Source: an uncultured delta proteobacterium (GTDB lineage Bacteria; Myxococcota_A; Polyangia; Fen-1088). Taken from it: DNA of 64,000 nucleotides. The notes beneath the pieces were generated by a model that saw nothing but the letters and a program-made list of their open reading frames with translations, made no database searches and was not told where the DNA came from. The stretch spans positions 33,559 through 97,558 of the forward strand of contig CAVTRY010000020.1 of NCBI GenBank assembly GCA_963737265.1, written 5' to 3'. Numbering within the stretch: the first letter of the stretch is position 1; the number at the start of each line of letters is the position of its first letter. This document shows, one piece after another, positions 41,359-57,900 of the stretch. The translations under genes were made by a program, and so were the position numbers.

Positions 41359-41395
41359 CGTCGGACTTCTACAGAAGGATTCACGATCCGCATGC

Positions 41396-41412
41396 TACTA
41401 CATCGCCTAGTA
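41396..41412. promoter_or_regulatory. BlaI-like operator TACTAC-N5-CTAGTA
   Basis: Member of the recurring palindrome, upstream of the ABC1 kinase gene. Confidence 0.65.
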
Positions 41413-41443
41413 GTGCGCTGGGCGCTCGGACTCGCCAGCCGCA

Positions 41444-41686
41444 TTAGGCCCCCTGCGTCTGCTCGAACACGCGGCGGTAGCCGCAAGCGGCGTGCTCTTC
41501 GCGATCTAGCGCCGCGAGATATTCAGCGAAGGCGACGTCGCGGCCGGGACGGGGCGCCGAGCGCCAGTTCCGGTACGACTCGGCTACCGCGCGGCTCTCG
41601 TCGCGCCAGTGCAGGTAGCTGTCCATCAGCGCGTCGAGAAGCTCGAGGCGAACAGCGTTAGTTCGAGGTGCTCTCTTCAGGTTCAT
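41444..41686 (-). CDS. Small helical hypothetical protein (paralog of 57167-57508)
   Basis: RBS AGGAG and MDSYLHWRDESRAVAESY..W...AFAEYLAALDREEHAA. Confidence 0.75.
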   Translation of the reverse strand: MNLKRAPRTNAVRLELLDALMDSYLHWRDESRAVAESYRNWRSAPRPGRDVAFAEYLAALDREEHAACGYRRVFEQTQGA

Positions 41687-41727
41687 TCCGATCAACTCCT
41701 GGGTCGCCGAAGCCGGATGCTGGCACC

Positions 41728-41744
41728 TACGATGCTGCGTCGTA
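41728..41744. promoter_or_regulatory. BlaI-like operator TACGAT-N5-GTCGTA
   Basis: Recurring palindrome upstream of the gene starting at 41686. Confidence 0.68.
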
Positions 41745-41848
41745 GGTACCTCATCCGTGTAGACGCCGTCCGACGCCAAACCTTCCTGAAGATGTCGCCG
41801 TCAGAATCCAGCGGTTTGCCGGGGTCGCCGAGTCCGTCGGGACCGCTG

Positions 41849-42625
41849 CTAAAGGCCTGCTGGAAAGGCGATCGACAGCGGGGCGACAACCGGCCTGCCC
41901 ACGTCAAGCTGGATCTGCGCGTGCGCCGTCAGCGGGATCTGTCGCGGGTTACCTTCGAACAGGCGACCGTTGTAGATTGCGGTTACGTGGCCCGAGGCTG
42001 GCCCAACTCTGTCGGGTCCGAGCTCCTGTCCCCACACGTCGAAGAAGTTCCCGAGCGTGAAGGTGCGAACCACGGGCGACTCGATGTGGACGATCCCGTC
42101 CGCCGCGTGAGTGTGCAGCCAATAGAAGCAGCTGCCGCCACCGACGAAGATTCCCTCCGGAGTGCTCATCGTCTGCGGGCCTTCGATTCCCACCCCGTAA
42201 GGGATGCTGCGGGCGACGCCGTGGTCGAAAACCGTCAGGTGGACGTGGATGTGGAAGGCGAGCTGCTCGTTGCCGAGGCATTGGATGCCGTCGACCGGCC
42301 CGCGTCCGGCGCGTGCCACGGCGAGGACCCGAGCATCAGGAAGGGGGACGCCCTCGGGCCCGAGCGCACCGGCCGGCGGGGGAGATCTGAGCGGGCCGAG
42401 CGACGAGAGCGAGGTCAGCCGGAGCGCCGGCGCGGGTGCGTTCCCCTGTCCGGTCGGCCCGTGATGGTTTGCCAGCACGGCCCCTGCCGCGATTGCGACG
42501 ACGAATGCGGCGAGCACCCCGCCGCGCGCACGCGATCGTCTCCGCTCGGCCTTGGCTTTCAGCTCCGCTTCGCGGGCGAGGCGAGCAGCGCGCGCTCGGG
42601 TCTTTGCTGACTTACCGCTGCTCAA
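41849..42625 (-). CDS. Membrane-anchored protein with His-rich putative metal-binding domain
   Basis: One TM helix, FHIHVHL and CFYWLHTHAADGIVHIES. Confidence 0.8.
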   Translation of the reverse strand: MSSGKSAKTRARAARLAREAELKAKAERRRSRARGGVLAAFVVAIAAGAVLANHHGPTGQGNAPAPALRLTSLSSLGPLRSPPPAGALGPEGVPLPDARVLAVARAGRGPVDGIQCLGNEQLAFHIHVHLTVFDHGVARSIPYGVGIEGPQTMSTPEGIFVGGGSCFYWLHTHAADGIVHIESPVVRTFTLGNFFDVWGQELGPDRVGPASGHVTAIYNGRLFEGNPRQIPLTAHAQIQLDVGRPVVAPLSIAFPAGL

Positions 42626-42638
42626 TACGCGGAAAATC

Positions 42639-42670
42639 TACTACCGAGCATAGTGCGATGCAGTATAGTA
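42639..42670. promoter_or_regulatory. Two tandem BlaI-like operators
   Basis: TACTAC-CGAGC-ATAGTG and TGCGAT-GCAGT-ATAGTA. Confidence 0.6.
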
Positions 42671-42702
42671 ACTCGCGCGTCATCCGACAGAAACGGAATC
42701 TC

Positions 42703-42880
42703 AATGCAACGCATCGCCGTGCCTGCCGTCGCCATCATCGCCTCTCTCTCCCTTGTCGCCCGGTGGCGGCCGATGACGGCAATCACCGCCCCCGATCAGG
42801 GCAATCCCAACCTGACCGCCGACCGAAACTGGGTACCACTGGCCAACACCGCCAATGACCCGAGCGATCCTGGGGTCACG
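42703..42880 (+). pseudogene. Vanadium haloperoxidase/PAP2-like fragment
   Basis: WRPMTAI...GNPNLTAD..WVPL.NT.NDPS.PG resembles this family. Confidence 0.5.
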
Positions 42881-43167
42881 CCACGTTCAGCCAGGTGGCC
42901 GCCACACGATCTGAGTGATGGCGAGCGTGCGGGTCGGATGAATCGAGGCGGGTCGGTGATTTCGTCGTCGACAACGCGGTCTCGCCTCATCGCTGAGCCA
43001 AGCTCGAGGGCTGCCGCTGCAGAAGCCCTCGATTAATTAAACGCCGCCCTCTCCCCCCGATGGCCGACGTCGTCGCGGCCCCGCCCTGCTCCCGGGCGGG
43101 GCCGCTCTCTTTGTCTGTGTGGCATAGCGATCGAGACGCTCGGGTCGGCTACGATCCGCCGTAGCCG

Positions 43168-44194
43168 ATGGCTGGCACGATCGACACCGAGTCGGCTGCG
43201 ACTGCGGTCCCGCCGGAGGGAATCAGCTCCTCGTCCGCCTCCCGGTCTCCTCGCCCGGCGGCGGCTGCCGCAGAGCGGGTCTGGGCCGCGGGCATGGTGC
43301 TCTGGGCGTCCGGGCTCGCGCTCTCGGTATTCGTGATCGGGCGGCTGTTCTTGACCTGGCGAGTGACGCCTCACGCGGCGACTCACCAGATCTCCTTGCT
43401 GGGCCAACGGCTGAGTTATCCGGTGGCGAACCTCGACGCTTTGATCGTCCTTGCGCTCGCGCTGGCGGGCTTGGCCGTCGGCGCGATGACGGCGTGGGGA
43501 GCAATCCGCGAGCTTGCCGCGACGAGAGCCTTCGAGCGGCACCTCGCCGCGCAGGAGCCCAGACCGTGGAAGGGCGCGTTGATCATCGAAGACGAGCGTC
43601 CGCAGGCGTTCTGCGCCGGCCTGTTCAACCCGCGGGTCTATGTGTCGTCCGGCGCGGTGGCTTCGCTCGACGAGACGGCCCTGGACGTCGTCCTCGCGCA
43701 CGAGTCTCATCACGCACGACGCCGGGATCCGCTGCCTTGCGGTCGGTCGCGTCCTCGCACGGGCGTTGTTCTTCGTGCCGGGTCTCGCCGAGTTGGTCCG
43801 CCGCCAGCAAAACCTTGCAGAGCTCGGCGCGGACGAAAGCGCGATGAACGTCTGCCCTGACAGCCCCTCGGCGCTGGCACGCGCGATGCTTACCTTCTCG
43901 GAGTCCTCGCCCACGGGCGGCTCGGTCGGGATCGATCCTGGGAGGGTCGATCACCTCCTCGGAGAGCCGCCGGACTGGCGCTTTCCCACTCTGCTGTGCC
44001 TTGCGGCGGCGGTCGTGATCGGCCTGCTCGGAACCATCGCGGTGCTGGCGGGCCAGCTGGCGGCGGGCTCTGCCACGCTCGCCCCGCCGTTTCTCTCCCA
44101 CCAGCCCTGCGTCGTGATCCTGGCGCTGATCCCCGCCATTGTGGTCCTGGGCTGCGCCGGCTCGGCGCGCTGGCTGCGCCGCAACATCGTCTAG
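43168..44194 (+). CDS. BlaR1/M56-family membrane metallopeptidase (frameshift near 43735)
   Basis: TM helices, PQAFCAGL..PRVYVS, HESHH zinc motif, then ELGADE..A in the next frame. Confidence 0.85.
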
Positions 44195-44226
44195 CACGGG
44201 TTCCAGGAGGCTTCAGCCGCGGCCTC

Positions 44227-44319
44227 TACGAGGCTGCGTAGTTTTTTGTCGCGGTACTGGGAAGTTTTCTCGCGCACGGGTGTCTTTAGAGGAGAAGCCG
44301 CTTACGACGCGGCGTCGTA
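44227..44319. promoter_or_regulatory. Two BlaI-like operators upstream of the ferritin-like/Tat operon
   Basis: TACGAG-GCTGC-GTAGTT (44227) and the perfect palindrome TACGAC-GCGGC-GTCGTA (44303). Confidence 0.7.
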
Positions 44320-44359
44320 GAGCGTTTCGAAGGCACCCGAAAGACCTCGAGAAGATTTC

Positions 44360-44869
44360 ATGAAACCAGGCCGTGGACCGGTACATCGGATACCTGTGCT
44401 AAGCGTCACGAGGGCCATCGGGGCGATTGCGCTGCTCGTCGTCGGCGGCGTGCACCTTGAGCAGTACACGGTCGCGCATTTCTCGGTGATACCTACGATC
44501 GGACCGCTGTTCCTGGTGAATTTCATCGCGGCGACGTCACTCGGTCTCGTTCTGCTGATCCCGATCCGACGTTCCGCTCGCCACGGACGGCTGCTGTTTG
44601 ACTCGCTGGCGGCACTGGCCGGCGTCGGGGTTGCGGCTGGCGCCTTGGCCGCGCTGCTGATCAGCGAGCACAGGCCGCTGTTCGGGTTCATGGAACACGG
44701 ACATCGCCTCGAGATCGTGATCGCGATTGCAGCCGAGGCCGTCGCGATCGTCTCGCTCGGTGTCTTTCTCGCCATCGCGAACCGGCGGGCGCACGAGCTG
44801 CGGGCCAGGCTCGTCACCCGCGACGAGGCAGGCGATGCCGCGTCCTCTCCTACCGCGTCGGAGGCCTAG
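44360..44869 (+). CDS. Four-TM hypothetical membrane protein
   Basis: GGVHL, IPTIGPLFLVN and LFGFME with four hydrophobic segments. Confidence 0.75.
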   Translation: MKPGRGPVHRIPVLSVTRAIGAIALLVVGGVHLEQYTVAHFSVIPTIGPLFLVNFIAATSLGLVLLIPIRRSARHGRLLFDSLAALAGVGVAAGALAALLISEHRPLFGFMEHGHRLEIVIAIAAEAVAIVSLGVFLAIANRRAHELRARLVTRDEAGDAASSPTASEA

Positions 44870-44871
44870 CG

Positions 44872-45234
44872 GTGCCGCGACTGTTCATGCTCACCGTGCC
44901 GGGGCTGAGAGTTGCTTCGGACTGGGCAGCAGTCCACGACCGCCTGCTCGACGACTTCCCCGAGATCACGGACGTCCTGGCGACCACGATGACCGCCACG
45001 CTGCTGATCGTCTACGAAGGCGACGCGAACGTCGACGCCTGGTTCGAGGGCATCAGCGACGGAATCCTCAGTCGGCGCATCAGCGCCGGAAACGCGCCTC
45101 GCGTGAAGACATCAAGCCGCGCGCGCGGCCACCAGCGGGCCGCGGGTGTCAGGCGGGGACACGACCGTGGACCCTGCCCCCGCGGTCCATACCAGTTGAA
45201 CCACTCAACCCAACAAACGAAAGGCACAACATGA
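44872..45234 (+). CDS. Small hypothetical protein (ferredoxin/HMA-like pattern, no CxxC)
   Basis: Packed between its neighbours and weakly similar to 54327-54626. Confidence 0.55.
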   Translation: MPRLFMLTVPGLRVASDWAAVHDRLLDDFPEITDVLATTMTATLLIVYEGDANVDAWFEGISDGILSRRISAGNAPRVKTSSRARGHQRAAGVRRGHDRGPCPRGPYQLNHSTQQTKGTT

Positions 45235-46394
45235 GCACATCAGATGTAACGTCCGCCTATCCAATCGAGTCGTCTGGCGAGGACGGCCTGGAAGCCCGCT
45301 GGCGCGGAGTGGTGGGTCGTCGTTCGTTTCTGAAGGGCGTGGGGCTGGCGGGCGCCGCGGCGGTCCCGGGGGCGGCGTTGTTCGCGAGCGAGGCGAGCGC
45401 CGCAAGCCGTGAGATCACCGCGGGCGATGTCGCAATCTTGCGGCTGCTGGCTGCGATCGAGTTGATCGAGACCGACCTGTGGCAGCAGTACAACGAGCTG
45501 GGTGGGGTTGACGGAGGCAACCCGGCCTACATGGCAGCGCTCTCGAATCTCGACTCAGACATGCCGCAGTACATCGCCGACAACACCGACGACGAGGAGA
45601 GCCATGCCGCTTTCCTGAACGCGTATCTCCGCTCCAAGGGCGCGCGGCCGGTGAATCTGGACGAGTTCCGGACGCTTCCCAGCAGCCAGGCCACCGGCGC
45701 GAAGCAGAAGGGGCGGCTGACGAATCTGCAGACGCTCGACGTCGACACGAGCTGGTATGTGCGCTACCGGAGCACCGAGAACCCCGATCTGGGGGCGACC
45801 TTCCCCCAGGCGGTGGACATCAAGCACGAGCCGGCGATCCCGCTCAACGACACCGACACTCCGCCAAGTCTGCCGGCGCCGGTCCCGCCGGTGGGCGCGC
45901 AGGAGACGCGGATGCAGGCGATCGCCAACACGGCGGGGTTTCACTTCGCTTACATCGAGCAGGGCGGCTCGAGTCTGTACAGCATCATGGCGCTCAAGGC
46001 CACCAGCCTTGAGGTGCTGCGGATTATCGTCTCGATCGGCGGTGTGGAGACCAACCACTTCTCGCTCTGGCACGACAAGGCCGGCAACGCCGTCGCGCAG
46101 CCACTGGCCGGGGTCACCGATCCCGAAACCGGCGTGACCTTCCCCGATCTGAACGCCAAGGGCGGCGAGCTGAACCAGACCAACCTGATCCTCCCCGAAC
46201 CGTGTGACTTCCTGCACAAGGATCTACCCCAATGCTCGATCGTACGACCCACCCTGGACGACAACGGGGGCGCCGTGGCCACGATCAAGAGCTTCACCGC
46301 CGACCGGCTGTTCGAGGGCCAGTCCCCGAAGTTCTTCAGGACCGTCCTCGAGCTGGCCAGAGAGGCCGACGCCGCCCAGCGCAGCCTCCGTTAA
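45231..46394 (+). CDS. Tat-exported ferritin-like domain protein
   Basis: GRRSFLK twin-arginine signal, ELIETDLW, DEESH, IEQGG and VETNH di-metal ligand pattern. Confidence 0.88.
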   Translation: MSTSDVTSAYPIESSGEDGLEARWRGVVGRRSFLKGVGLAGAAAVPGAALFASEASAASREITAGDVAILRLLAAIELIETDLWQQYNELGGVDGGNPAYMAALSNLDSDMPQYIADNTDDEESHAAFLNAYLRSKGARPVNLDEFRTLPSSQATGAKQKGRLTNLQTLDVDTSWYVRYRSTENPDLGATFPQAVDIKHEPAIPLNDTDTPPSLPAPVPPVGAQETRMQAIANTAGFHFAYIEQGGSSLYSIMALKATSLEVLRIIVSIGGVETNHFSLWHDKAGNAVAQPLAGVTDPETGVTFPDLNAKGGELNQTNLILPEPCDFLHKDLPQCSIVRPTLDDNGGAVATIKSFTADRLFEGQSPKFFRTVLELAREADAAQRSLR

Positions 46395-46510
46395 TCGCAG
46401 CGACAGAGCCGGCGGCCGCCGAGACTACACGGCCGCTAACCGACCACGCAGACCGGCCGCGGCTCATCTCGAGAGCCGCGGCCGATCCGCCCAAGCAAAA
46501 GGACACCACC

Positions 46511-46723
46511 ATGTTCACCGGAATCCTGCAACCCACGCATCTGATCATCCTCCTGGTTGTCGCCCTCCTGTTCCTCGGGCCCAAACGCCTCCCCGAGGCC
46601 GGACGCGCCCTCGGCCAGGGACTCAAAGAATTCAGAAGCTCGATCGCCGGGAGCCACCCCGACGACCCGCAGATCGCAGCGGGGCCCGACGTCACCCACG
46701 AAGACACCGCGCCGCACCAATGA
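46511..46723 (+). CDS. tatA: Twin-arginine translocase TatA
   Basis: RBS AAGGA and ALLFLGPKRLPEAGRALGQGLKEFR. Confidence 0.92.
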   Translation: MFTGILQPTHLIILLVVALLFLGPKRLPEAGRALGQGLKEFRSSIAGSHPDDPQIAAGPDVTHEDTAPHQ

Positions 46724-46752
46724 CGGGCGTCATTCGGTCGCGACCGAGCGCA

Positions 46753-48595
46753 TCTAGCTCCGCTAGGCCATTGAGAGGTTCACGGACGAGTCATCTTTTC
46801 AGGGGATGATGGCCGCCTGGTTGATGCGGGCTTGGAGTGCGTTCTCGAACGCTCGCCACGCTTGGGCGAGTGGGGTGCGCTGGGCGATGCCGGGTGGTAG
46901 CGCGGAGTCGAGTTCGGCGAGGGATGGGTTGACGATCCGCGTGTAGGTCTTGGTGAGAAAGACGGCCAGTCGGCGTCCCTCGCTGGTCAGCTCGTATCGC
47001 TGTGTGCGGGGGATCCGCTGGATGAACCGTTTGCGTCGCAGGCGGCGGAGGTCGTAGGTCATCTGGCGGGCGCTGTAGCCGGGGATCAGCCCGGCGATGA
47101 GCTCGCGCAGAGTGCGGTTCGTCAGGCCCGCGAATAGGTGCTCAAAGCAGCACAGGCAGGCGAGTAGCGCCATCGTACGCGGCTCGCCGAAGCGCAGGCC
47201 GGGGCGGGTAGGCCATCTTCGATGGATGGCAGCACCACGCGCTGCAGCGTCGTGGCGTCTGGCGCGCACTGGCACGCCTCAAGCTGATGGTCGAGGAACC
47301 GCTGGTTGACCTGGTGGCCGACCTGGACGAGCGCGTCCCAGTTGGCTTGGGTCAGGCGGCGGCCGATGCCGAAGTCGCGGGTGTCGTTGACGGTCGTTTC
47401 GGTGCGGAGTGCGCAGCGTTCTTTGAAGTACTGCTTGACCTTCGAGGCGCGGTAGTGAACCTGGATCGCCGGCTCGACGCCTTTGTTGAAGATCTTGGTG
47501 TGAAACCGCCCGGGGTCTGGCGGGAGACGCGCCGGCCGAACACGATCGCGACCTGGTCGGGACGCCCGAGGGTGAGCTGGTCGGGCAGGGTGCGCTCAAA
47601 CCACGCCCGGCCGGCCATCGGTCGGTCGAACATGCGGGTGTCGGAGATCTCGGCCTGGCGGAACGCCAGCTCGTGCGGGTAGCCTCGCTCCCGGTCCTCC
47701 GCGGTCAGCGGCGAGGGGAGCGCCGCCTGCCAACGGTCGAAGAACAGCTGCACGTCCTCCGCCTGAAGGCTCGAGCAGATGTCGGCCAGCGCCACCGGAT
47801 CCTCACACGCGGCGAACCCGTTATCCAGCGGTGTGAACGCGATCCCCCGCCGGGGGGCTTGGCGCTTGGCCCATTCGTTGCCGTTGAGGTATAGCCATAC
47901 CGAGAACGGCGCATACGCGGTCGTCTTCAGAAACGCGGGGCCCCAATCGGGATCGCGGATGTACCAGTAATAGTTGTTGGGGAAGATCGACTGGCGGGCG
48001 TACTCGAAGTGCGGATGGCCGTCGGGTCCCCCGTCACGCCACCCACGCCAGGCCGAGGTGCGCTCCTGGGCGATCCCGACCATCACCACTCCGAAGCGGC
48101 CCTCTGCCTCGGCCGCCTTGAAGTATTCCCGGGCGATGTCTTCCTTCACGTCGCCCTTCTGAAAGCGCACCACCGGGATCTCGTAATCGACGATGTACTG
48201 CTCGATCGCGGCCACATACCAGCGACCGATCCTGCCCAGCACCACCGGCGAGGGGATCGGAAACCCGCGATCGAGGAGAAACCGGATGACCTGAAACTTG
48301 GTCTGCAGCCGCGGCACATACCCCTGAAAGAACAACCGGTCCACCGACCGGACCTCGAGGGTGACATGATCGGCGAGTAGGCTTGAGATCGTGGCCACGG
48401 GCGTCTCCTAACGATCGCAAGGTCGTTTGCCCCACGAGGGCCTCACATCTAGACCGGAGGCTAACCGTGGCCACCACCCCGCGAGCACCCCAGCGCTCCG
48501 AAGGAGCGCCCCGTTCGCGAGCGAGGCTCATACCCGAACCGCCACCACCTACCGGCCCTCCACTCGGCGGTATGAGGCTCGCTCGCTAACTCTAG
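46753..48595 (-). mobile_element. Unclassified insertion element without TIRs, bounded by TCTAG, inserted between tatA and tatC
   Basis: TCTAG at 46753-46757 and 48591-48595. Contains one reverse-strand gene and a hairpin-rich 190-bp end. Confidence 0.72.
46799..48398 (-). CDS. Putative transposase with C-terminal winged-helix domain (two frameshifts, ~47510 and ~47215)
   Basis: Reconstructed ~530 aa: DRLFFQGYVP, YYWYIRDPDWGP, LNGNEW, KVKQYFKE..LRTETTVNDTRDF and MTYDLRRLR. Confidence 0.75.
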
Positions 48596-48612
48596 AGTCG
48601 GCAGCGAGCGTC

Positions 48613-49552
48613 ATGGCGTTACCGCTCCGACCGGTCAGCCACGAAGCTCGTCTGCCGCTCCTTGAGCACGTGAGCGAGCTCCGGACGCGGTTGGTCATCA
48701 CCCTCGCTGCGGTGGTGGTCGCGTTCGGGTTTGCGTTCTGGCAGAACCATGCGCTCCTGAACGTCCTGAACCGCCCGCTAGTGCGTGCGAGTGCGGGGGC
48801 GCTCAAGCACTCGCACGGTCCGCTCGCCCAAACCGCCCGCGTGCAGCAGACCCTCGGCGTCGCATTGGACCGCCAACGCGTCGCGTTCGAGCTCCTCGCG
48901 CGGTCCTCGGCTCCCCTCGCCGCCGCGCAGCGCCAAGCGTTGAACTCAGCCGCCCGGGGCGACGCCGCGGTCGTAGCCGTCACCCCTACCGAGCCCCAGG
49001 GCCGCCAGCCGGTGACCCTCGGCCTGGGCGAGCCGTTCATCCAGACGCTCACCGTCGCCGGCTACTTCGCGCTGCTGTTCGCGCTGCCGGTCGTCCTTTG
49101 GCAGCTCTATGCCTTCATCACCCCCGCCTTTAGCCCCGGCGAGCGCCGCGTCGCGCTGCCACTGATGGCAATGGCGCCCCTCCTGTTCATCGCCGGAATA
49201 GCATTTGGCTATTTCGTCGTGTTGCCCGGTGCGGTCGGGTTTCTGCAGAACTTCAACGCGAGCTCCTTCGATGCGCTCGTGCAGGCCAGTACCTACTACC
49301 GATTCATCCTGCTGACGCTGCTGGCAGCCGTTCTTCCAGATTCCGGTTGCCGTCATTGGACTCACCCGCACAGGGATCGTGAGTACGCGTCAGCTGCGCA
49401 AGCACCGCCGCCAGCCCATCGTTGCCCTCGTCGCGCTGGCGCTGTTGCTACCCGGCACCGACGTCGTGACCACGTTCCTCGAGCTCGTCCCCATGCTGGT
49501 TCTCTACGAGCTCAGCGTGTTCGTCGCCGGCCTGTTCGAGCGCCGCTCATGA
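48613..49552 (+). CDS. tatC: Twin-arginine translocase TatC (frameshift near 49330)
   Basis: LLEHVSELRTRL, EPF, WQLYAFITPAF...ERR, then FQIPV...LYELS in the shifted frame. Confidence 0.88.
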
Positions 49553-50251
49553 GCCAACGCACGCGGACCAACGATTCCCCCGGCATCCTCGTGAACTCCG
49601 TGTGACGTCGCGCGGCCATTAGCACGAGAGATCAACTCGATGGTGCACGCAAAAAGTCATCGCGACCAGCGCCGTCAATCAACTCAGTGCGCCCTTCCGC
49701 CGGCCTTGAGACCCAAGAGGGTGGCGCGACGAGGACAAGGAACACGAAGGCATGCGATTGCCCACTCTTGAGCGCCAGCTGATGGGTGTGGTCGGCGCCG
49801 GCGCTCGCATGCCGATTCACCACGAGGCCCAGCCCCCGGGGAAGCATCCACGCCACGGCACCTATCCCGTAGCCGGGCCCCGGCACGCCCACCAGGAATC
49901 CAAACGGGGCGGCAAGGTTACCGGCGCGAGGTAACCCAGCAGCCCGTCGACCGGGCCATGGAAGAGGATCGCTCGTATCAGGGCGAAGCCGAGCCATTGA
50001 ACGCTCGTGATTGCCGCTGCGTTTCCGCTGGCGCGTCGCGAACGTCGATCAGCTTAGTGAGGATCATCCCAACGCCGATGCCGGCACTAGCGGTGCAGAA
50101 ATGTAAAACCGGTCATCCTTCTGCGGCAGGGGCTAGACCCTATGGAGGATGATTCGTGTCGGCGTTGAAGGCCGGACCTCGGTCGCATTTTGCGGGGGTT
50201 TGACTGGCCGGAGAGTGGCTCCGGCTGACCCCATACGAAGGAGGTCCGGCC

Positions 50252-51334
50252 GTGACTGGAACGATGACATGGGCCGCGATGGATGTCCACGCGCGCTCTA
50301 CCTACGCGGCGTCGTTGGACGTGGTGACCGGCGAGCTGTCGCGTCAGCGGTTCGACACGGGCGCGGTCGAGCCGGTGGTCGGCTGGCTGGCTGGGTTGCC
50401 GGGGCCGGTGCGCTGCTGCTACGAGGCGGGCCCGACCGGGTTTGGGCTCTACCGGGCGGCGGTCGCGGCCGGGATCGATTGTCAGGTGATCGCGCCGTCG
50501 AAGACGCCGCGCCCGTCCGGGGATCGCAACAAGTCCGACCGTCGCGACACCGATCTGTTGTTGCGTCAGCTGATGGCCGGCGGGTTGACGGCGGTCGTGG
50601 TTCCGTCGGCGACGTGCGAGGCCGCTCGGGATCTGGCGCGGGCGCGCGAGCAGGTCAGAGTCGATCTGATGCGCTGCCGGCACCGGCTCTCGAAGCTGCT
50701 GCTGCGCCACGGCCGCGTGTGGGACCGCAGCGCGTGGACGAAGGCGCACCGCGAGTGGCTCTCAGCACAGACCTTCGAGCAGGCCGGCACCGAGCTGGCG
50801 TTCATCGACAACCTCGCCGCGTGCGACGGGCTGACCGCCCGCAAGGACGCGCTCGACGAGCGGCTCTCATCGGTCGTGTCCGACCCAGAGTTCTGGCCGC
50901 TGGTCCGCCGCTTGCGCGCATTCCGCGGGATCGACACGCTCTCGGCGCTGATCATCGTGCTCGAGGTCTCAGACTTCACCCGCTTCCCGCGCGCGGTGCA
51001 GCTCGGATCGTGGCTGGGGCTGGTGCCCTCCCGCGAGCAGTCCGGCGAGTCCGATCACCATGGGTCGATCACCAAGACCGGCTCAAAGTACGCCCGGCGG
51101 ATCCTCGTCGAGGCGGCCTGGCATTACGCCCGCCCGCCGAGGATCGGGCGGACGCTCTACGAGCGCCAGGAGGGGCTGCCCGACCATGTCCTGCAAATCG
51201 CACGACGCGCCCAGAGCCGCCTCTACCGGATCCACCGACGGATGCGGGAGCGCAACAAGCCGGGCAACGTGATCACCGTCGCGTGCGCGCGCGAGCTCGC
51301 CTGCTTCCTCTGGGCGGCCGCCACCGCGCCGTAG
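50252..51334 (+). CDS. IS110-family DEDD recombinase/transposase
   Basis: MDVHARS, YEAGPTG, KSDRRD and GLVPSREQSG..ITKTG. Confidence 0.95.
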   Translation: MTGTMTWAAMDVHARSTYAASLDVVTGELSRQRFDTGAVEPVVGWLAGLPGPVRCCYEAGPTGFGLYRAAVAAGIDCQVIAPSKTPRPSGDRNKSDRRDTDLLLRQLMAGGLTAVVVPSATCEAARDLARAREQVRVDLMRCRHRLSKLLLRHGRVWDRSAWTKAHREWLSAQTFEQAGTELAFIDNLAACDGLTARKDALDERLSSVVSDPEFWPLVRRLRAFRGIDTLSALIIVLEVSDFTRFPRAVQLGSWLGLVPSREQSGESDHHGSITKTGSKYARRILVEAAWHYARPPRIGRTLYERQEGLPDHVLQIARRAQSRLYRIHRRMRERNKPGNVITVACARELACFLWAAATAP

Positions 51335-51349
51335 CACACACTGACAGCC

Positions 51350-51555
51350 CGTCCCCGCTCGGGTGGGGAGGCGCCGGGCCCCGAAGTCCGCTGGTACGCG
51401 CGATGGTGCTATGGGCAGCCCTCACCAGGCCACGCCCGATCCTAGACACGCGTCAGCCAGCGACGCAACCAGGGACCTGGGGTAGCCAACCCCCGCATAT
51501 GAGACTGACCGACGTCGAGAACTTCGCCCGACGCCTCCCCACCCGAGCAACACCT
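51350..51555 (+). ncRNA. Putative bridge/seek RNA of the IS110 element
   Basis: Perfect 17-bp closing stem (51357-51373 with 51532-51548). Internal CATATGAG is identical to the element's right end. Confidence 0.65.
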
Positions 51556-51639
51556 CCCACCAACCCCCCAAACGACACCACCGAGGGGACATTCAACGCT
51601 GCTCACTTGACAGACGCTCCTCCATATGAGCACCCCCGC

Positions 51640-51910
51640 GTGACCGTCAAGTCGCTTGACTAGCCCAGGTCCGTCGCCTGGGTGAGGTCCATCGAGGGTG
51701 AACCTCCCGGCTTCGGCGAGGCGTTCAGATCCTTTCGGCTGCACCCTCCCGATCTTCGTCGGCGCCTACCCTGTAGGGCAAGCGTGCCGGCGCCGACAGC
51801 AGCGCGGCGGCGGCGGCGAGAGCAAAGGGCGCCAGAAACAAGCCCATCGTGGAGCATCTCTGCCCCCCGAACAGGCAAGCGACGATGATCCAAACGAACC
51901 GGGCATCCAT
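51640..51910 (-). pseudogene. Degraded membrane-protein gene 5' part, adjacent to the IS110 insertion
   Basis: Hydrophobic short ORF 51725-51910 with an operator upstream. Confidence 0.3.
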
Positions 51911-51945
51911 CGGGGTAGCTCGAGACTGTCAGCCTTCAGAGCTAC

Positions 51946-51962
51946 TACGACGGGCCATAGTA
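51946..51962. promoter_or_regulatory. BlaI-like operator TACGAC-N5-ATAGTA
   Basis: Recurring palindrome. Confidence 0.65.
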
Positions 51963-52020
51963 GCGCGGGCGATGGGAACAGCTATCGAGTTGCTCCTGAG
52001 CTGATCTCCACACTACGGCC

Positions 52021-52060
52021 CGGCGCCGAGCCCCGACTTCAAGCTGGGGACTCGGCGCCG
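52021..52060 (-). terminator. Hairpin downstream of the 52080-52613 gene
   Basis: CGGCGCCGAG-CCCC...GGGG-A-CTCGGCGCCG stem. Confidence 0.5.
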
Positions 52061-52079
52061 CGCTGCTGCGAAGATGCGC

Positions 52080-52613
52080 TCAGTATCCGTAGCTGGACGA
52101 CCCGGACCCGCTCGCGGGCGCCGGAGAGGTGGAAGGGGAGGTGACCGCGTTGCCACCAGGCCCAAGGCCATACCACAGGGCGCCGAACTGGTTCAGCCCC
52201 TGGCCGCTCGTCTGACCCGGGGTGTGATCGCCGACGTAGTAGTACAGCGGGTGTCCGTTGTAGGTCACCTGGGCGGCGCCGCCCGCCTGCGCGACGGTGC
52301 CGATCCGTCCGGCTACCGTGCCGCTCAGCGCCCGCGGTGTGGTGGTGGCCGTAAAGGGCGGCCAGATGGCCTGGCCGGCCGCCGACAGGGTGCTGACGTT
52401 GGGCCTGTCACCCTCGAACAGGTAAAGCGTCCGCCCGTTGGCGTCGACCAGGGTGGCGCCAAGCGACGTCTGCTTAACCGAGATCGCCGACGCGGCGGCG
52501 ACGGTCGACCGAGGCTTCGTGGTGCTCGCGCCGCTGGTGGCCACGATCACTGCAATGGCTGCCGCGACGATGACGGCGACGGCCGCCACCAGTGGGAGTC
52601 GTGTGCGACTCAT
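52080..52613 (-). CDS. Secreted COG4315/Lipoprotein_15 repeat protein
   Basis: LVDANGRTLYLFEGD, WPP, QVTYNGHPLYYY.GD and GQG...FGALW. Confidence 0.88.
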   Translation of the reverse strand: MSRTRLPLVAAVAVIVAAAIAVIVATSGASTTKPRSTVAAASAISVKQTSLGATLVDANGRTLYLFEGDRPNVSTLSAAGQAIWPPFTATTTPRALSGTVAGRIGTVAQAGGAAQVTYNGHPLYYYVGDHTPGQTSGQGLNQFGALWYGLGPGGNAVTSPSTSPAPASGSGSSSYGY

Positions 52614-52736
52614 TTCGTCTCTGCTCCTTGTGGAGGATTGTCCAACGCGCCCTCGCCTCTCGAACGATCGCCGGTGGCTGGGTCAGCGTTGCTTCTCACT
52701 GGAAGAGTCCGCTCGCGGCCGATACCTTCCCGGACC

Positions 52737-52778
52737 CACTACGCCACGTAGCAGAAAGACCTACGAGCCCGTATAGTA
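52737..52778. promoter_or_regulatory. Two BlaI-like operators in a divergent promoter region
   Basis: CACTAC-GCCAC-GTAGCA and TACGAG-CCCGT-ATAGTA, the latter containing a TATAGT -10-like box. Confidence 0.65.
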
Positions 52779-52785
52779 GCTCGCG

Positions 52786-54297
52786 ATGGCCGCCCAAGTT
52801 CTTCTCACCGGCGCCACCGGCTACGTGGGCGGTCGCCTGCTCCATCGACTCGAGGCTTCGGGCCGCGAGGTTCGGTGTCTGACCCGGCGGCCCGAGGCCC
52901 TGGCGACGCGCATCGCCGAGGGGACCGAGGTGGTGGCCGGGGACGTTCTGGACGCGGCGTCGCTACGCCGCGCGATGGAGGGCGTGGAGGTGGCCTATTA
53001 CCTGGTCCACTCGATGGAGACCTCGACGAGGTTCGAGGCGCTCGACCGGACGGCGGCGCGCAACTTCGCCCAGGCGGCCCGCGCAGCCGGGGTACGCCGC
53101 ATCGTTTACCTGGGCGGCCTGGGGAGCGGAGATCGGCTGTCCCCGCACCTGGCGAGCCGGCAGGAGGTCGGCGCCATCCTCCGTTCGTCGGGCGTTCCGA
53201 CGATCGAGTTTCGCGCCTCGATTGTGATCGGCTCCGGCAGCGCGTCATACGAGCTCGTGCGAGCGCTCGTCGAGAGTCTGCCATTGGTCATCGCCCCGGC
53301 GTGGGTCGAGACGGTCGCGCAGCCGATCGCCATCGAGGACGTCCTCGAGTACCTGCTCGCGGCGCTCGAGCGCGAGGATCGTCGCAGCGCGATCTTCGAG
53401 ATCGGTGGCGCCGAGCCGGTGACCTATGCGGAGATCATCCGTGAGTACGCGCGCCAGCGCGGTCTGCGGAGACCACTGCTCCGCTCATCGCTGCTCACGC
53501 CACGACGGTCGCGCTTCGTCCTCGGCCTGATTACCCCGGTCTACGGCCAGGTTGCCGGCGCGCTGGTCGAGGGCCTGCGCAACGAGACGGTCGTCCGCTC
53601 GCCCGCCTCGCTGGAGGAGTTCCCGATCCGCCCCCGGGGGCTCCAACGAGCGGTGGAGCGAGCGCTCATCAGCGAGGATTTGGAATTCGCGGAAACGAGT
53701 TGGTCGGACGCGTTCGCGTCCGCCCCCCCGGCCGGGGTGGCTCCGACCCCGTTCGGTCGGCGCCTGGTCGCCTCGCGCGTGCTCCGCGTGAACGCCGACT
53801 CGAGCGACGCATTCGACCCCATCCAGCGCATAGGCGGACACACCGGGTGGTACGCGGGCAACTGGTTCTGGCGTGCCCGTGGATTGCTGGACACGCTAAG
53901 CGGCGGCGTCGGGTTGCGACGCGGTCGGCGCGACGCGGTCGATCTCCGCCTCGGCGACACGATCGACTTCTGGCGCGTCGAGACGCTCGAGCAGGGCCGT
54001 CGGTTGCGCCTGGCGGCGGAGATGCGAATCCCCGGCCGCCTGTGGCTCCAATTCGAGATCGATCCTCACGACGATGGCGGCGTCCAGGTTCGCCAGACCA
54101 CGGTGTTCGATCCCGCCGGCTGCGTCGGGTTGGCGTATTGGTACATGCTCTGTCCCATCCATCATCTCGTCTTCGGCCGCATGCTTCGCGGCATCGGGCG
54201 CGTAATCGGACGCCGGGCGTCCGCCTCGCCCGACTCAATGGTCGGAGCGACGGCGGCGCGGAGCGCAGCCCACTCGGTGGAATACTATGGTCGGTAG
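52786..54297 (+). CDS. Atypical SDR with C-terminal DUF2867 (YbjT-like)
   Basis: TGATGYVG, YYLVHSM, QPIAIEDV, DFWRVE and AEMRIPGRLWL. Confidence 0.9.
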   Translation: MAAQVLLTGATGYVGGRLLHRLEASGREVRCLTRRPEALATRIAEGTEVVAGDVLDAASLRRAMEGVEVAYYLVHSMETSTRFEALDRTAARNFAQAARAAGVRRIVYLGGLGSGDRLSPHLASRQEVGAILRSSGVPTIEFRASIVIGSGSASYELVRALVESLPLVIAPAWVETVAQPIAIEDVLEYLLAALEREDRRSAIFEIGGAEPVTYAEIIREYARQRGLRRPLLRSSLLTPRRSRFVLGLITPVYGQVAGALVEGLRNETVVRSPASLEEFPIRPRGLQRAVERALISEDLEFAETSWSDAFASAPPAGVAPTPFGRRLVASRVLRVNADSSDAFDPIQRIGGHTGWYAGNWFWRARGLLDTLSGGVGLRRGRRDAVDLRLGDTIDFWRVETLEQGRRLRLAAEMRIPGRLWLQFEIDPHDDGGVQVRQTTVFDPAGCVGLAYWYMLCPIHHLVFGRMLRGIGRVIGRRASASPDSMVGATAARSAAHSVEYYGR

Positions 54298-54299
54298 TA
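54283..54299. promoter_or_regulatory. BlaI-like operator TACTAT-N5-GTAGTA
   Basis: Upstream of the gene starting at 54327. Confidence 0.65.
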
Positions 54300-54326
54300 G
54301 ATGTATTCCACGCTCGGAAGGATCCA

Positions 54327-54626
54327 GTGCAGACCTACCAGATCAACATCTCAAAGGGCCGCGACAAGGTGCACGAGATACGCCGCGAGCTGTTCGCTTT
54401 TTCGGAGATACTCGATGTTTTCGTGACCAGCCGGCCGGACTCGCTGGTGGTCGTTTGTGCTGGTCGGCCGCGGCTGGGCGAATGGCGCCGCGCGCTGCGC
54501 GCAGTCGGTTACGAGATACCGGCCCGACGGCACTCCTTCGCCGCCACTACGACAGAGCGTAGTATTAGCCAAATTCATGCCCAGGCAACTCAGATCGACC
54601 AGGCCAGACGGCCGCATGCCGCGTGA
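54327..54626 (+). CDS. Small hypothetical protein
   Basis: RBS GGAAGGA then GTG. Translation VQTYQINISKGRDKVHEIRRELFAF... Confidence 0.6.
   Translation: MQTYQINISKGRDKVHEIRRELFAFSEILDVFVTSRPDSLVVVCAGRPRLGEWRRALRAVGYEIPARRHSFAATTTERSISQIHAQATQIDQARRPHAA
54548..54564. promoter_or_regulatory. BlaI-like operator TACGAC-N5-GTAGTA upstream of ftsH
   Basis: Full consensus match. Confidence 0.7.
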
Positions 54627-56556
54627 CGAGAGCGTTTGGCGGGTCGCGCCTGCGCCCGACGGGCGGGGTATGCCGGATCCTCCTGCGCGGCGACCGCCGC
54701 ACCGGTCCCGCTGGTTCGTGTGGCTGGTGGGCCTCCTGCTCGCGCTGAACTTCGGCTCGGTGTTGCTGGTGCAGCCCGGCGCTCAGCCACGAGTGAAGGT
54801 GCCATTCAGCCCTTACTTCGTCAGCGCCGTGCAGGCGGGCCGGGTCGCGTCAATCGCCTCGACCGGGAACACCGTGCAGGGAACGTTCAAGCTTGCCGTG
54901 CGTTACCCGGCCCAGAGCCCCACGGCGGAGTCGACGACGCTGTTCAGCACCGAAGTGCCGACGTTCTGGAACGACAACCAGCTCACCGCGCTGCTGGAGT
55001 CCCATCACGTCCAGATCAATGCGTCCTCGCCGACTCAGGGCGGCTCGGTGGTCGGCTCCTCGCTCCTCGGGTTTGGACCGACACTGCTGCTGGTCGGTCT
55101 GTTCATCATGTTCGCGCGACGGGCGGCACGCGGCGGCGCGGCCGGCGCGCTGGGCAACTTCGGTCGCTCGCGGGCGCGCGGGATCGACCCGGCGACGATC
55201 AGGGTCACGTTCGCCCACGTGGCCGGGATCGACGAGGCCAAGGCCGAGCTGACCGAGATCGTTGACTTCTTGCGCAACCCCGAACGCTACGGCCGCTTGG
55301 GTGGCCGCATGCCCCACGGCGTGTTGCTCTCGGGCGCGCCGGGAACCGGCAAGACCCTGCTCGCTCGAGCGGTGGCGGGTGAGGCCCACGCGGCGTTCTT
55401 CTCGATCTCGGCCTCGGAGTTCATCGAGGCGATCGTCGGCGTCGGCGCGGCGCGCGTGCGCGACTTCTTCGCGAAAGCCAAAGAGGCCGCGCCGTCGATC
55501 ATCTTCATCGACGAACTCGACGCGATCGGCCGCTCGCGACAGGGTCAGGTATCGGTCACAGGCGGCAACGACGAGCGCGAACAGACACTCGATCAGGTCC
55601 TCACCGAGATGGATGGCTTCGAGAGCGTCGAGGCCGTCGTCGTGCTCGCAGCGACCAACCGGCCCGAGATACTCGACCTTGCACTGCTGCGTCCCGGGCG
55701 CTTCGACCGCCGAGTGTCGGTTCAACCCCCCGATCGGGTCGGCCGCCGAAAGATCCTCGATGTTTACACCCGCTCGATCCCGCTGGCCGACAACGTCGAC
55801 CTCGATGGGTTGGCGGCGAGCACGCCGGGGATGGTCGGGGCCGAGTTGGCCAACCTGGCCAACGAGGCAGCGCTGCTCGCGGCGCGGCGCCAACATCAAC
55901 GCGTCGAGCAGATCGACCTCACCGACTCGCTGGAGAAGATCCTGCTCGGTGCTCCGCGTGGAATCGTGCTCTCCCCGGCCGACCGCGAACGGACGGCCTA
56001 CCACGAAGCCGGACACGCGCTCGTCGGGATGCTCACCCCCGGCACGGACTCCGTGCGGAAGGTCTCGATCATCCCCCGCGGGATGGCGCTCGGGGTGACG
56101 TTGTCGGCACCGGACGACGACCAGGTCTCCTACACGCTCGAGGATCTGATCGCGAAGCTCAAGGTGGCGGTCGCGGGACGCGTCGCGGAGGAGATCGTCT
56201 ATGGAACGATCACCACCGGAGCCGAGAGCGACATCCAGCAGCTCACGATGATCGCCCGGCAGATGGTCGGCCGGTGGGGCATGAGCGACGCGATCGGACT
56301 CGTCTCGGTGCTTCCCGCCGAGGGTCTCGGGCCGCTGCTGGGCGCGGCGGGCGAGACATCCCAGGCCACCCAACAGCTCGTCGACGACGAGGTCCGCCGC
56401 CTGATCGATGGCGCGCACAGCGCGGTGACGGATCTCCTGACCGACCACCGCGAGCAGCTCGAGCACCTCACCGTGGCCCTGCTCGACGCCGAGACGCTCG
56501 ACGGCATCGACGCCTACCGCGCAGCCGGCATGCCGATGCAGTCCGAGGCCGCCTGA
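54616..56556 (+). CDS. ftsH: ATP-dependent zinc metalloprotease FtsH
   Basis: Two TM helices, [24 protein letters not shown] and HEAGH. Confidence 0.95.
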
Positions 56557-56815
56557 GCGCTGTCGCGCCCAGGCCGCGCGTCGGACCCTCAGGGACCGCC
56601 TTTCTCGCCGGTTCGCGCTCCCCGCCCAGCTCGGCCGCCGGGATCTCCTCAGAGCCGCCGGCGGCGTCTCGGCGCACGGCGCTCCCCGCGCTGCGCAACG
56701 TATGCGTCTCGGTCGCGCTGAGCTCCTCGCAGGTGCGCATGACGAGGAGGAACAGGAAGAACGGGACCACGAACGCGGCGATCCGGAAGAACCACACCTG
56801 GCCCTGGTAGCCCTG
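56556..56815 (-). pseudogene. Cytochrome b (QcrB-like) C-terminal fragment
   Basis: YQGQVWFFRIAAFVVP...RTCEEL...RRDAAGG. Confidence 0.5.
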
Positions 56816-57166
56816 ACGGGAATCCGGTCGGCAGCCCACGCGATGACGTGTCGGCCCCGACACGAGTTGGTACATGCGCTACGCAGTGCCGGCTCGATGA
56901 GCCGAACGTAAAGACTAAGGTTCCCACGCCGATGGGGTTGCCGGCGATCCAGGAGCTGACGCGTCGCCGCGTCAACGTTACGTCACGCCGCTGATCGACG
57001 TCTATGAGCACGTGATCAACGCGTACCGGCGCCGGCTTGGCGTGGGCTTGCCGCACGAGCGCGAGCGGGAGACTCGCTCGAGTCGACACGATCGGTGGCG
57101 TCGTTCTTCCTCTCGCGGATCGGTACGAAGGGCTCCACAGCGCTGAGTTGGGTCGTTCCCCCCCGG

Positions 57167-57508
57167 TTACGCCGTCGCGACCTGCGCGACCGCTCGCTGG
57201 TAGGCCGCCGCGGCTTGCTTTTCGCGGTCCAGGGCCGCGACATACACGCTGAATGCGAGCTTCTGGTCCGGGCGATCCGAGCACTTCCAGTCCTCATATG
57301 ACACGGCGACCGCGGCGCAGGCGTCGCGCCAGCTTACGTAGTCGTCCATCATGTCGTCGACGTACTGTCGGCGCCTTCCTCCCGCAAACGCTGAGCCGCG
57401 GTCACGGGTCCCTCGCGCGTTAGCCCGGGCCCTCACGCGCGCACGCTCCGGCTGATCGGCGGTTGGCGTGACGAGCGATTGACGGTTCCCGCGATACCGG
57501 GCTCGCAA
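57167..57508 (-). CDS. Small helical hypothetical protein (paralog of 41444-41686; start uncertain)
   Basis: MDDYVSWRDACAAVAVSY..W...AFSVYVAALDREKQAA. Confidence 0.7.
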   Translation of the reverse strand: MRARYRGNRQSLVTPTADQPERARVRARANARGTRDRGSAFAGGRRRQYVDDMMDDYVSWRDACAAVAVSYEDWKCSDRPDQKLAFSVYVAALDREKQAAAAYQRAVAQVATA

Positions 57509-57588
57509 TCCTCAGAAGCTAACTGTCTTGTTGCCGCTGCTGGTGCGCAGGCCCCGATTACGGGCTGCTTCATCGACCGCCGCCTTTC

Positions 57589-57900
57589 CTATTTTGGGGG
57601 AGCCGCGTGATCTACGACGTCAGGTAGTATTCGAATCGGCAGACGCCCGAAACGCCGAAGCATTCCCGCTTCTCGGGTCGAAGCGTCAACAGACACGAAG
57701 GGTTGTGCGCCCTCTTGTTGCCCCGCACGCGCTACCAGCTCGCGCGCGACTCGCTGTAGATCGCGCAGATAGCTGAGCTGAGCCTGCCAGCGCGCGTCGA
57801 GGTCCTGGCCGGTCGCGATTCGTGCGATGTCGTCGTGGGCGTCGAGCAGCTCGCACACCAAGCGCGTGAGCTGCTCGGACGCCCCCGGCATGGGAGCCAT
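57589..57900 (-). CDS. Hypothetical protein
   Basis: LVCELLDAHDD...W..QLSYLRDLQRVARE helical core. Confidence 0.55.
   Translation of the reverse strand: MAPMPGASEQLTRLVCELLDAHDDIARIATGQDLDARWQAQLSYLRDLQRVARELVARAGQQEGAQPFVSVDASTREAGMLRRFGRLPIRILPDVVDHAAPPK
57613..57629. promoter_or_regulatory. BlaI-like operator TACGAC-N5-GTAGTA
   Basis: Full consensus match upstream of the 57508 gene. Confidence 0.7.

Follow-up and report, generated by a model that had tools for sequence, protein, structure and literature searches.

The 64,000-nucleotide stretch analyzed here (the window) belongs to contig CAVTRY010000020.1 of a genome binned within the Myxococcota_A (GCA_963737265.1) and carries, in its right part, repeated copies of a 17-bp dyad, TACKAC-N5-GTMGTA. 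An original prediction had taken 13 such copies, between 41396 and 57629, for BlaI-like operators outlining a regulon around an M56 protease. We put at about 0.85 the probability that winged-helix repressors of the BlaI family, from a Solirubrobacterales bacterium, use the dyad as their operator, that its targets form a clustered regulon, and that the contig of the window is chimeric. Comparison among genomes showed a conserved dyad that is under selection, lies at the promoters of a conserved gene set, and is linked both physically and phylogenetically to blaI and M56 genes. Some 12 promoters bear it, namely, those of blaI, an MFS transporter, cydAB, an ABC1/UbiB kinase, small helical proteins, a His-rich protein, a second M56 protease, an operon of membrane-protein, ferritin-like, and TatA(C) genes, a COG4315 lipoprotein, an SDR-DUF2867 fusion, a small protein, and an FtsH paralog. 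This is probably a non-canonical BlaIR system for membrane or respiratory stress.

Enrichment and conservation of the dyad

Matches to the pattern were scored as exact or with at most one or two mismatches. The window holds four exact matches (9592, 44303, 54548, and 57613) versus 0.01 expected, and four or more appeared in none of 100 shuffles of the window. At ≤2 mismatches we found 15 matches against a shuffle mean of 1.92 and a shuffle maximum of 6, so the predicted enrichment over background was borne out. Twelve of these 15 fall in 41396-57629, the match at 51943 being an overlapping shift of that at 51946. Among the 13 sites listed originally, 11 lie within two mismatches of the consensus; 42654 (TGCGATGCAGTATAGTA) and 43150 (TACGATCCGCCGTAGCC) carry three, yet both are conserved at the orthologous position in relatives. 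The statement that the motif was not seen in the left 40 kb was nearly right: that part has one exact match (9592, inside a long open reading frame [ORF] in unrelated DNA) and two matches with two mismatches (15507 and 34343), all at chance level, since about one exact match is expected per 6.5 Mb. When ≤1 mismatch was allowed, the 6.55-Mb assembly yielded 18 matches; contig C20 (97.6 kb) holds eight of these, seven of which lie within the span 41396-57629, and all four exact matches of the whole assembly are located on C20.

From 65 distinct sites drawn from 12 sources, the dyad could be refined to c-TAC(T/G)AC(g/a)-N3-(c/t)GT(A/C)GTA-g, with information also at positions that had not been part of the search pattern (0/18 and 7/11): position 0 is C in 68% of the sites and position 7 is G or A in 87%. 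Because the sites are imperfect dyads, the motif did not stand out in an enumeration of exact 5-Nn-5 palindromes, whose top count of 3 did not exceed that of Markov simulations.

For a footprint analysis, 11 window sites were aligned to up to three related metagenome-assembled genomes (MAGs), whose kinship means that P values from these counts are overstated. The arms were changed in 22 of 360 alignment cells (6%), compared with 53 of 150 (35%) for the 5-nt spacer and 210 of 887 (24%) for the flanks, and the conservation of the motif upstream of Solirubrobacterales orthologs, suggested originally as a check, held. At seven more distant loci the gene order was shuffled, and the same families were clustered with blaI and had kept dyads in front of them. 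The families concerned are the ferritin-like/TatA genes, FtsH, the small protein, the small helical protein, COG4315, SDR-DUF2867, CydAB, ABC1, M56, and a pair of 169-aa and 120-aa proteins. The clustered regulon proposed earlier, with ABC1, small helical proteins, ferritin-like/Tat, COG4315, SDR-DUF2867, and ftsH as members, is therefore recovered with its operators kept in rearranged loci. A dyad precedes the ferritin-like gene in all seven relatives mapped, and loci of this ferritin-like gene in Acidobacteriota, Gaiellales, and other taxa (L044-L093) had 0 or 1 site each.

To cover the phylum, 30 blaI genes were drawn evenly from 121 genomes, their loci being fetched by blaI alone, and the region from -300 to +30 of the Pfam match was searched at ≤2 mismatches. 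The dyad was present upstream of 13 of the 30 genes (12 of 25 when five unpublished genomes are left out), and four of these 13 dyads were exact, three of them in published genomes; the background rate from the window is about 0.01 dyads per 330 bp. Dyad-bearing blaI loci include low-GC ones (0.40 to 0.58 GC) outside the Solirubrobacterales. One exact dyad lies upstream of a blaI gene (L137) whose product matches 2g9w_A at an E value of 3e-59, an entry that we take to be the structure of Rv1846c of Mycobacterium tuberculosis. The operator of that repressor is said to be TAC[GT]AC-N5-GTAGTA; the resemblance noted in the original prediction is thus backed by L137. The TAC...GTA arms also resemble the operators of BlaI, MecI, and CopY.

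The native repressor locus

No PF03965 (BlaI-family) gene was detected by profile search in the window or in the binned genome, in keeping with the earlier statement that the repressor gene is not in the window. Such genes were found beside the orthologous cluster in all five Solirubrobacterales genomes tested (G041 to G045), and the 12 strong PF03965 matches, without exception, were on contigs with dyad clusters and within a few kilobases of them. The assignment of the dyad to a BlaI-type repressor was upheld by this adjacency together with the phylum-wide sample. To the left of ABC1, genome G042 has the arrangement M56/M48 <- blaI-1 <- [two dyads] -> blaI-2 and the arrangement MFS transporter <- [three dyads] -> cydA cydB; two dyads separate the divergent blaI genes in G041 as well. 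The two paralogs of G042 match PF03965 at E values of 1.6e-19 and 5.4e-21. BlaI-2 also matches 2g9w_A (E 4.8e-11), and an AYTTxM recognition helix is common to both.

In the relatives, the two divergent blaI genes and the co-transcribed M56 protease gene lie about 6 kb to the left of the point at which the window leaves the cluster, and the window is without repressors because its sequence breaks off about 6 kb short of them. The regulon thus extends to the left of the break with two blaI genes, the first M56 gene, the MFS gene, and cydAB. Native genomes have two to four blaI paralogs in one cluster of 25 to 35 kb. Exact dyads located in the blaI cluster or on blaI-bearing contigs amounted to 3/3 in G042, G044, and G045, 3/6 in G041, and 2/4 in G043. 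At ≤1 mismatch, 12 of 18 sites of G044 fall within 27 kb, and 9 of 30 sites of G042 within 20 kb, with three more within 2.1 kb at a second locus.

That second locus of G042 (L147; C4:803500-814500) is a small dyad cluster with sites at 4335, 4620, 6407, and 6443. Its dyads lie upstream of an operon for an SPW-repeat membrane protein and an LPG_synthase_TM protein, beside a PspA/IM30 gene, which suggests an outpost of the regulon made up of membrane-stress genes. Also in G042, a 465-aa PAP2/vanadium-chloroperoxidase-like protein (L110, 7984-9381) has dyads upstream. This protein recurs beside dyads at four other loci (L040, L043, L024, and L023) and is a regulon member from outside the window.

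Two candidates for a repressor inside the window were discarded. The region directly upstream of the M56-like gene (42700-43150) has no coding signal and no winged helix-turn-helix (wHTH) in any frame. The HxlR-like ORF at 46799-47275 matched its family only at an E value of 0.001, below the cut-off, and sits in an insertion absent from relatives.

The contig junction and the origin of the DNA

The regulon belongs to a soil actinobacterium (Solirubrobacterales) and not to the binned genome. The junction 40506|40507 truncates two genes, a SnoaL-like one (+) and that for ABC1 (-), and neither an insertion sequence (IS) nor a repeat separates them. Of the SnoaL_2 profile, only positions 5 to 59 of 102 are matched, and ABC1 has 288 aa in the window versus 472 aa in a relative. 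To the left, the DNA matches genomes of the genus of the binned genome. To the right, positions 40507-58997 have ca. 90% DNA identity to three Solirubrobacterales MAGs (L014, L015, and L016), and in all three the synteny begins exactly at 40507. The ferritin-like protein has relatives at 94 to 97% identity in Solirubrobacterales MAGs. Among 40 relatives of the binned genome, the 17-kb cluster had no DNA match except for the universal AAA core of FtsH, and the DNA of the right segment, IS elements included, was not found elsewhere in the assembly. GC content rises across the junction from ca. 0.62 to 0.66-0.69, and the tetranucleotide composition of the right segment is within the background range of the genome (correlation of 0.93 to 0.96).

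Contigs from four public runs (two studies) match the right segment, many at an identity of at least 99%. All of them continue leftward from 40507 into a single sequence, the same as that of the MAGs at 29 of 30 bases, and none of the contigs of the four runs bridges 40506|40507 to the left side of the window. The contig is thus very probably a chimeric join, at this point, of the binned genome and a Solirubrobacterales fragment, which is the simplest reading because the bin (99.5% complete) has 7.6% contamination, and which would explain why the binned genome is without BlaI. Conclusions about a regulon, or about a "missing regulator," drawn from this bin would mislead.

Two mobile or repeated elements lie near the ends of the two parts. 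An element of ca. 87 bp at 39121-39207 has many copies, at ca. 90% identity, in the binned genome (C12, C13, and C21) and in genomes of the same genus; it is probably a genus-specific small repeat or a miniature inverted-repeat transposable element. At the contig end, a fragment of a Mutator-family transposase (63539-63934; PF00872, profile 288-370 of 379) is probably the reason why the assembly stopped there.

Operators and target genes in the window

Protein families were assigned from Pfam and NCBIfam scans together with translations of the ORFs of the window (Table 1). Nine sites end 1 to 41 nt before a start codon, their targets being ABC1, the small helical protein, the His-rich protein, the small secreted ORF, the M56-like gene, the membrane-protein operon, SDR-DUF2867, the gene at 54327, and ftsH. 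The claim that nearly all sites lie just upstream of starts holds for these nine; two more are 116 to 123 nt upstream, and those at 51946 and 57613, both in window-specific insertions, have no clear target in the window. Minus-strand targets are ABC1, the small helical protein, the His-rich protein, and COG4315. The gene-proximal half-site is mostly (G/A)TAGTA and the distal one mostly TACGAC. By reading of the sequence, operators appear to overlap -10-like hexamers such as TATAGT and CATAGT, as had been proposed.

Table 1. Operators and genes of the dyad cluster in the window
Feature	Position	Strand	Location or target	Evidence and remarks
ABC1/UbiB-type atypical kinase	40492..41358	-	cut at junction	PF03109, E 6e-53, profile 2-188 of 244
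Operator	41396..41412		37 nt upstream of ABC1 kinase start (-)	1 mismatch; orthologous dyads in 3/3 close MAGs, spacer varying
Small helical protein, 80 aa	41444..41686	-		unassigned family; paralog at 57167-57508 (-)
Operator	41728..41744		41 nt upstream of small helical gene (-)	1 mismatch; conserved in 3/3 MAGs
His-rich (HIHVH...HTH) membrane-anchored protein, 258 aa	41849..42625	-		translation
Two back-to-back operators	42639-42655 and 42654-42670		between divergent genes	both conserved in L014 and L016
Small ORF, signal-peptide-like N-terminus	42704..43036	+	followed by terminator-like hairpin, 43075-43105	coding status uncertain; flat signal of GC at third codon positions (GC3); no Pfam match
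Weak operator	43150..43166		1 nt before M56-like start codon	3 mismatches; conserved in 3/3 MAGs
Second M56/M48-type membrane metalloprotease (HExxH)	43168..44194	+		without sensor domain; Pfam M48 30 bits, M56 26 bits
Possible distal operator	44227..44243		after M56-like gene	2 mismatches; also terminator-like hairpin with T-run
Exact operator	44303..44319		40 nt upstream of membrane-protein/ferritin-like/Tat operon	conserved, spacer varying
Operon: 169-aa membrane protein, 120-aa protein, Tat-signal ferritin-like protein, TatA	44360..46723	+		
Tat-signal ferritin-like protein	45231-46394	+		Pfam Ferritin_2, TAT_signal; TIGR01409
TatA	46511-46723	+		PF02416
TatC	48427..49605	+		PF00902, E 1.5e-34
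Dyad	51946..51962		inside window-specific 2.4-kb insertion; no clear target	1 mismatch; no orthologous counterpart
COG4315/SCO0930-like lipoprotein	52080..52613	-		NF040526, E 7e-22, below cut-off
Two operators	52737-52753 and 52762-52778		between divergent COG4315 and SDR-DUF2867; the second ends 7 nt before SDR-DUF2867 ATG	conserved in 3/3 MAGs, spacers varying
SDR (NmrA/NAD_binding_10) fused to DUF2867	52786..54297	+		
Operator	54283..54299		27 nt upstream of GTG 54327 of small gene	conserved in L014, L015, and L017
Small protein	54327..54626	+	GTG preceded by GGAAGGA	unassigned family; operator kept in relatives
Exact operator	54548..54564		12 nt upstream of ftsH ATG 54577	four different spacers at orthologous site
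FtsH paralog (AAA + M41 protease)	54577..56556	+		
Exact dyad	57613..57629		in 368-bp segment absent from L015; upstream, on the minus strand, of the small helical paralog 57167-57508 (-)	target unclear; counterpart in L017

Neither the small helical protein nor the His-rich protein had a Pfam or NCBIfam match, and the atlas look-alikes of both are hypothetical proteins of Actinomycetota. The small protein at 54327 is a target that the original prediction had not included. The C-terminal part of TatC appears to be out of frame. Between its gene and tatA lies an insertion of 1.85 kb that L015 does not have. This insertion (46750-48600) has two minus-strand ORFs of 348 aa (no Pfam match) and 158 aa (the weak HxlR-like wHTH), which together may represent a single frameshifted gene from an unrecognised mobile element. 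The window-specific 2.4-kb insertion at 49571-52015 carries an IS110 transposase gene (50252-51334; PF02371 and PF01548), and the dyad at 51946 lies ca. 600 bp beyond it. To the right of the cluster, an ORF for an extracytoplasmic function (ECF)-type sigma factor (58336-59520, minus strand) has 394 aa with a weak BTAD-like N-terminal stretch; its ortholog in G042 has 209 aa, and the longer form may be an over-extended ORF.

M56 proteases

The location of an M56 gene under one of the sites (43150) was confirmed. This gene has a 2-bp deletion near 43733, just after HExxH...RRRDPL, with a switch of the GC3 phase, seen relative to L014 to L016. Orthologs in one frame come from L014 and from three further MAGs (L024, L025, and L029), and that of L014 matches PF05569 with 41.9 bits (cut-off of 31). 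The orthologs of L015, L016, and L017 have frame breaks at other, differing positions, a pattern that looks like, and suggests, assembly indel errors rather than decay. For the window itself, the deletion may equally be a real mutation or an assembly indel. Apparent "pseudogenes" in these bins need cautious reading.

The first M56 gene, in G042, has a start that overlaps the end of blaI-1 by 17 nt and encodes HExxH at residue 152. The two M56-type proteins encoded at the native locus have only 316 and 342 aa, with HExxH and with transmembrane helices at both ends. Only M56 and M48 Pfam domains were found in them, and the penicillin-binding domain was absent from both. Equally, among the scanned proteins of the window and of the native G042 locus there was no β-lactamase or penicillin-binding protein (PBP) family, several targets being without any family; the earlier remark that no β-lactamase is present therefore stands for this set.

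Alternative explanations

Several results weigh against our reading. In the phylum-wide sample, 17 of the 30 blaI genes had no dyad at ≤2 mismatches within 300 bp, and these dyad-negative genes share the same recognition helix; a comparison of this helix between dyad-positive and dyad-negative BlaI proteins gave no discriminating residue. The first M56 protein scores 29.6 bits against PF05569, under the cut-off of 31, and higher against PF01435 (M48, 37.4 bits). Genome-wide, sites at ≤1 mismatch are no more frequent than those of a reversed-pattern control (30 versus 32 in G042 and 18 versus 58 in G044), and exact counts are 6, 3, 4, 3, and 3 versus 4, 2, 3, 4, and 1; the evidence is thus in the location of the sites and not in their abundance. 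The site at 44227 is ambiguous and may be only a terminator: its spacer is unchanged in relatives, unlike that of other sites, and more distant relatives also have two sites here. A scan for σ70-consensus promoters found none versus 1.3 expected and speaks neither for nor against the overlap with -10-like hexamers that the sequence suggests. The four public runs are without the left-hand organism (depth of 0 over 38500-40375 except for a repeat in run X5); they reveal the setting in which the right segment naturally occurs, and a real junction may exist in the source sample. Finally, repression, the link between protease and repressor, and the stress signal are all things that we infer.

A real junction would mean that a 23.5-kb Solirubrobacterales fragment was transferred without its repressors, leaving orphaned operators and genes that are constitutive or decaying. 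In the assembly the contig runs on without a break, the fragment has mobile DNA specific to the window (IS110, the 1.85-kb tatA-tatC insertion, and the Mutator-family fragment) and damaged genes (the 2-bp deletion in the M56-like gene and the truncated ABC1), and a 99.5%-complete genome has no PF03965 gene, all of which would fit such a transfer. We nevertheless consider it unlikely, given that the join truncates two genes without any intervening IS or repeat, that the IS elements of the fragment were not found in the rest of the assembly, that environmental contigs at 99% identity carry an uninterrupted Solirubrobacterales context, and that the bin is contaminated at 7.6%; the frameshifts elsewhere in the orthologs of L015, L016, and L017 suggest assembly indel errors and not decay.

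A co-clustered regulator of another family could bind the dyad while BlaI recognises something else: the cluster encodes an ECF sigma factor and a 773-aa NB-ARC/TPR/GerE protein (a LuxR-type STAND protein) besides the small helical proteins, and more than half of the blaI genes of the phylum sample are without a recognisable dyad. Such a binder is very improbable, as the dyad tracks blaI outside the Solirubrobacterales, including low-GC loci and 2G9W orthologs, and sits in the divergent blaI-blaI promoter region, and the geometry of the dyad (6-5-6, with 11 bp from one half-site centre to the other) suits a winged-helix dimer and not the -35/-10 spacing of a sigma factor. Least probable of all, in our view, is that the dyads, instead of being operators, represent repeats of a structural or mobile nature (terminator hairpins, repetitive extragenic palindromic [REP]-like elements, or IS110 target sites). 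The hairpin with a T-run at 44227 and the position of 51946 beside IS110 in a window-specific insertion would agree with this, but most sites are 1 to 41 nt upstream of start codons and not after stops, the arms are fixed while the spacers vary freely, the flanks lack the conservation expected of a repeat element, and the enumeration of exact palindromes found no repeat family here.

Proposed mechanism

Going by knowledge of the family and by the site positions, a BlaI dimer would occupy the dyad 1 to 41 nt before the start codon, where it is predicted to overlap the -10 element or the transcription start and to block RNA polymerase. Stress of the membrane or of respiration, and not a β-lactam, would then provide the signal that activates the M56 protease, and cleavage of BlaI by this protease would derepress the whole cluster. 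A signal of this kind is proposed because the targets are cytochrome bd oxidase, a UbiB-type kinase, FtsH, Tat export with a ferritin-like substrate, and lipoproteins, and because the second locus of G042 holds SPW-repeat and LPG_synthase_TM genes beside pspA. Where the original prediction suggested envelope, redox, or metal stress rather than antibiotic, the targets would favor membrane or respiratory stress.

A broader and tentative idea is that the sensor-less BlaI/M56 pair of Actinomycetota is an ancient switch of membrane energetics, and that the paralog pairs of the Solirubrobacterales, acting on one operator, let signals converge. If so, the ancestral regulon would have maintained homeostasis of respiration and of the envelope (cytochrome bd oxidase, UbiB-type kinase, FtsH, Tat export, and PspA-linked genes), with the mycobacterial ATP synthase as part of it and the control of β-lactamase as a late mycobacterial addition. 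In that case a single compact, co-inherited stress island could collect different membrane signals, whether by independent cleavage or by way of heterodimers.

Comparison with known systems

The native locus has the elements of a BlaIR system, i.e., a PF03965 repressor, an adjoining M56 gene (HExxH), and the dyad at its own promoter and at those of the targets. Neither hallmark of the canonical β-lactam-sensing subgroup, a C-terminal sensor domain on the M56 protein or a β-lactamase or PBP2a under the operator, was found among the proteins scanned. In the canonical BlaI/BlaR1 and MecI/MecR1 systems of Staphylococcus and Bacillus (1P6R, 1SAX, and 1OKR), derepression is brought about by the M56 protease. 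Their repressors are of the same fold family (the native BlaI matches 1p6r at E 3e-7 and MecI at E 6e-4), and autoregulation from a divergent promoter region is found there as it is here. Unlike BlaR1 and MecR1, our system has no sensor domain and no β-lactamase or PBP2a target, and the NCBIfam models of BlaI and MecI score the native paralogs far below their cut-offs. CopY/TcrY, whose box is of the TAC...GTA type, belongs to the same Pfam family and gave the best NCBIfam match (TIGR02698, E 4e-9), at 36.8 bits against a cut-off of 121.95. It differs in its C-terminal Cys metal-binding motif, which is missing here (0 and 1 Cys in the two paralogs), and in having a copper chaperone and not a protease as partner.

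CenIR of Clostridioides difficile likewise consists of a repressor and an M56 protease without a transpeptidase sensor, and it resembles our case in its ca. 12-gene, mostly cell-envelope regulon without β-lactamase and without a known signal. It differs in phylum and targets, presumably in its operator as well, in being a single pair, and in having dispersed targets.

The closest relative is the mycobacterial BlaI/BlaR system (Rv1846c/Rv1845c and BlaRI of M. abscessus). Both have a PF03965 repressor with the AYTTxM helix, close 2G9W orthologs carry the same dyad upstream, and the M56 partner is likewise without a penicillin-binding domain. According to PMC13492132, most proteins annotated as BlaR have no β-lactam sensor and no known signal, sensor-less BlaIR systems are the majority, and those of mycobacteria are linked to energy metabolism. 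Two further sources name atpH and sigC as members of the BlaI regulon (PMC8265638, after Sala 2009) and mention Rv1303 and ftsQ in connection with it (PMC12565901). The mycobacterial regulon thus reaches energy metabolism, as does ours. Unlike it, our system has no β-lactamase among the genes tested, has two to four blaI paralogs and two M56 genes per locus, and has ca. 12 operators and their targets packed into 25 to 35 kb instead of dispersed, the targets being cydAB, a UbiB-type kinase, FtsH, a Tat-exported ferritin-like protein, and others.

Calling the regulon "undescribed," as was done at first, is therefore too strong for the type of system, given the sensor-less majority and the mycobacterial energy link that PMC13492132 reports, and apt for the lineage and the target list. 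What is new is the lineage, the multiple blaI and M56 paralogs on one operator, the tight packing, and a target list with five unannotated families. This gives a sensor-less BlaR-type system a compact and conserved set of targets (cydAB, a UbiB-type kinase, FtsH, a Tat-exported ferritin-like protein, and the unannotated families) that points to respiratory or membrane stress and parallels the energy link reported for mycobacterial BlaI. The question of the signal thereby becomes testable in a non-pathogenic lineage, and five uncharacterised protein families acquire a shared regulatory context.

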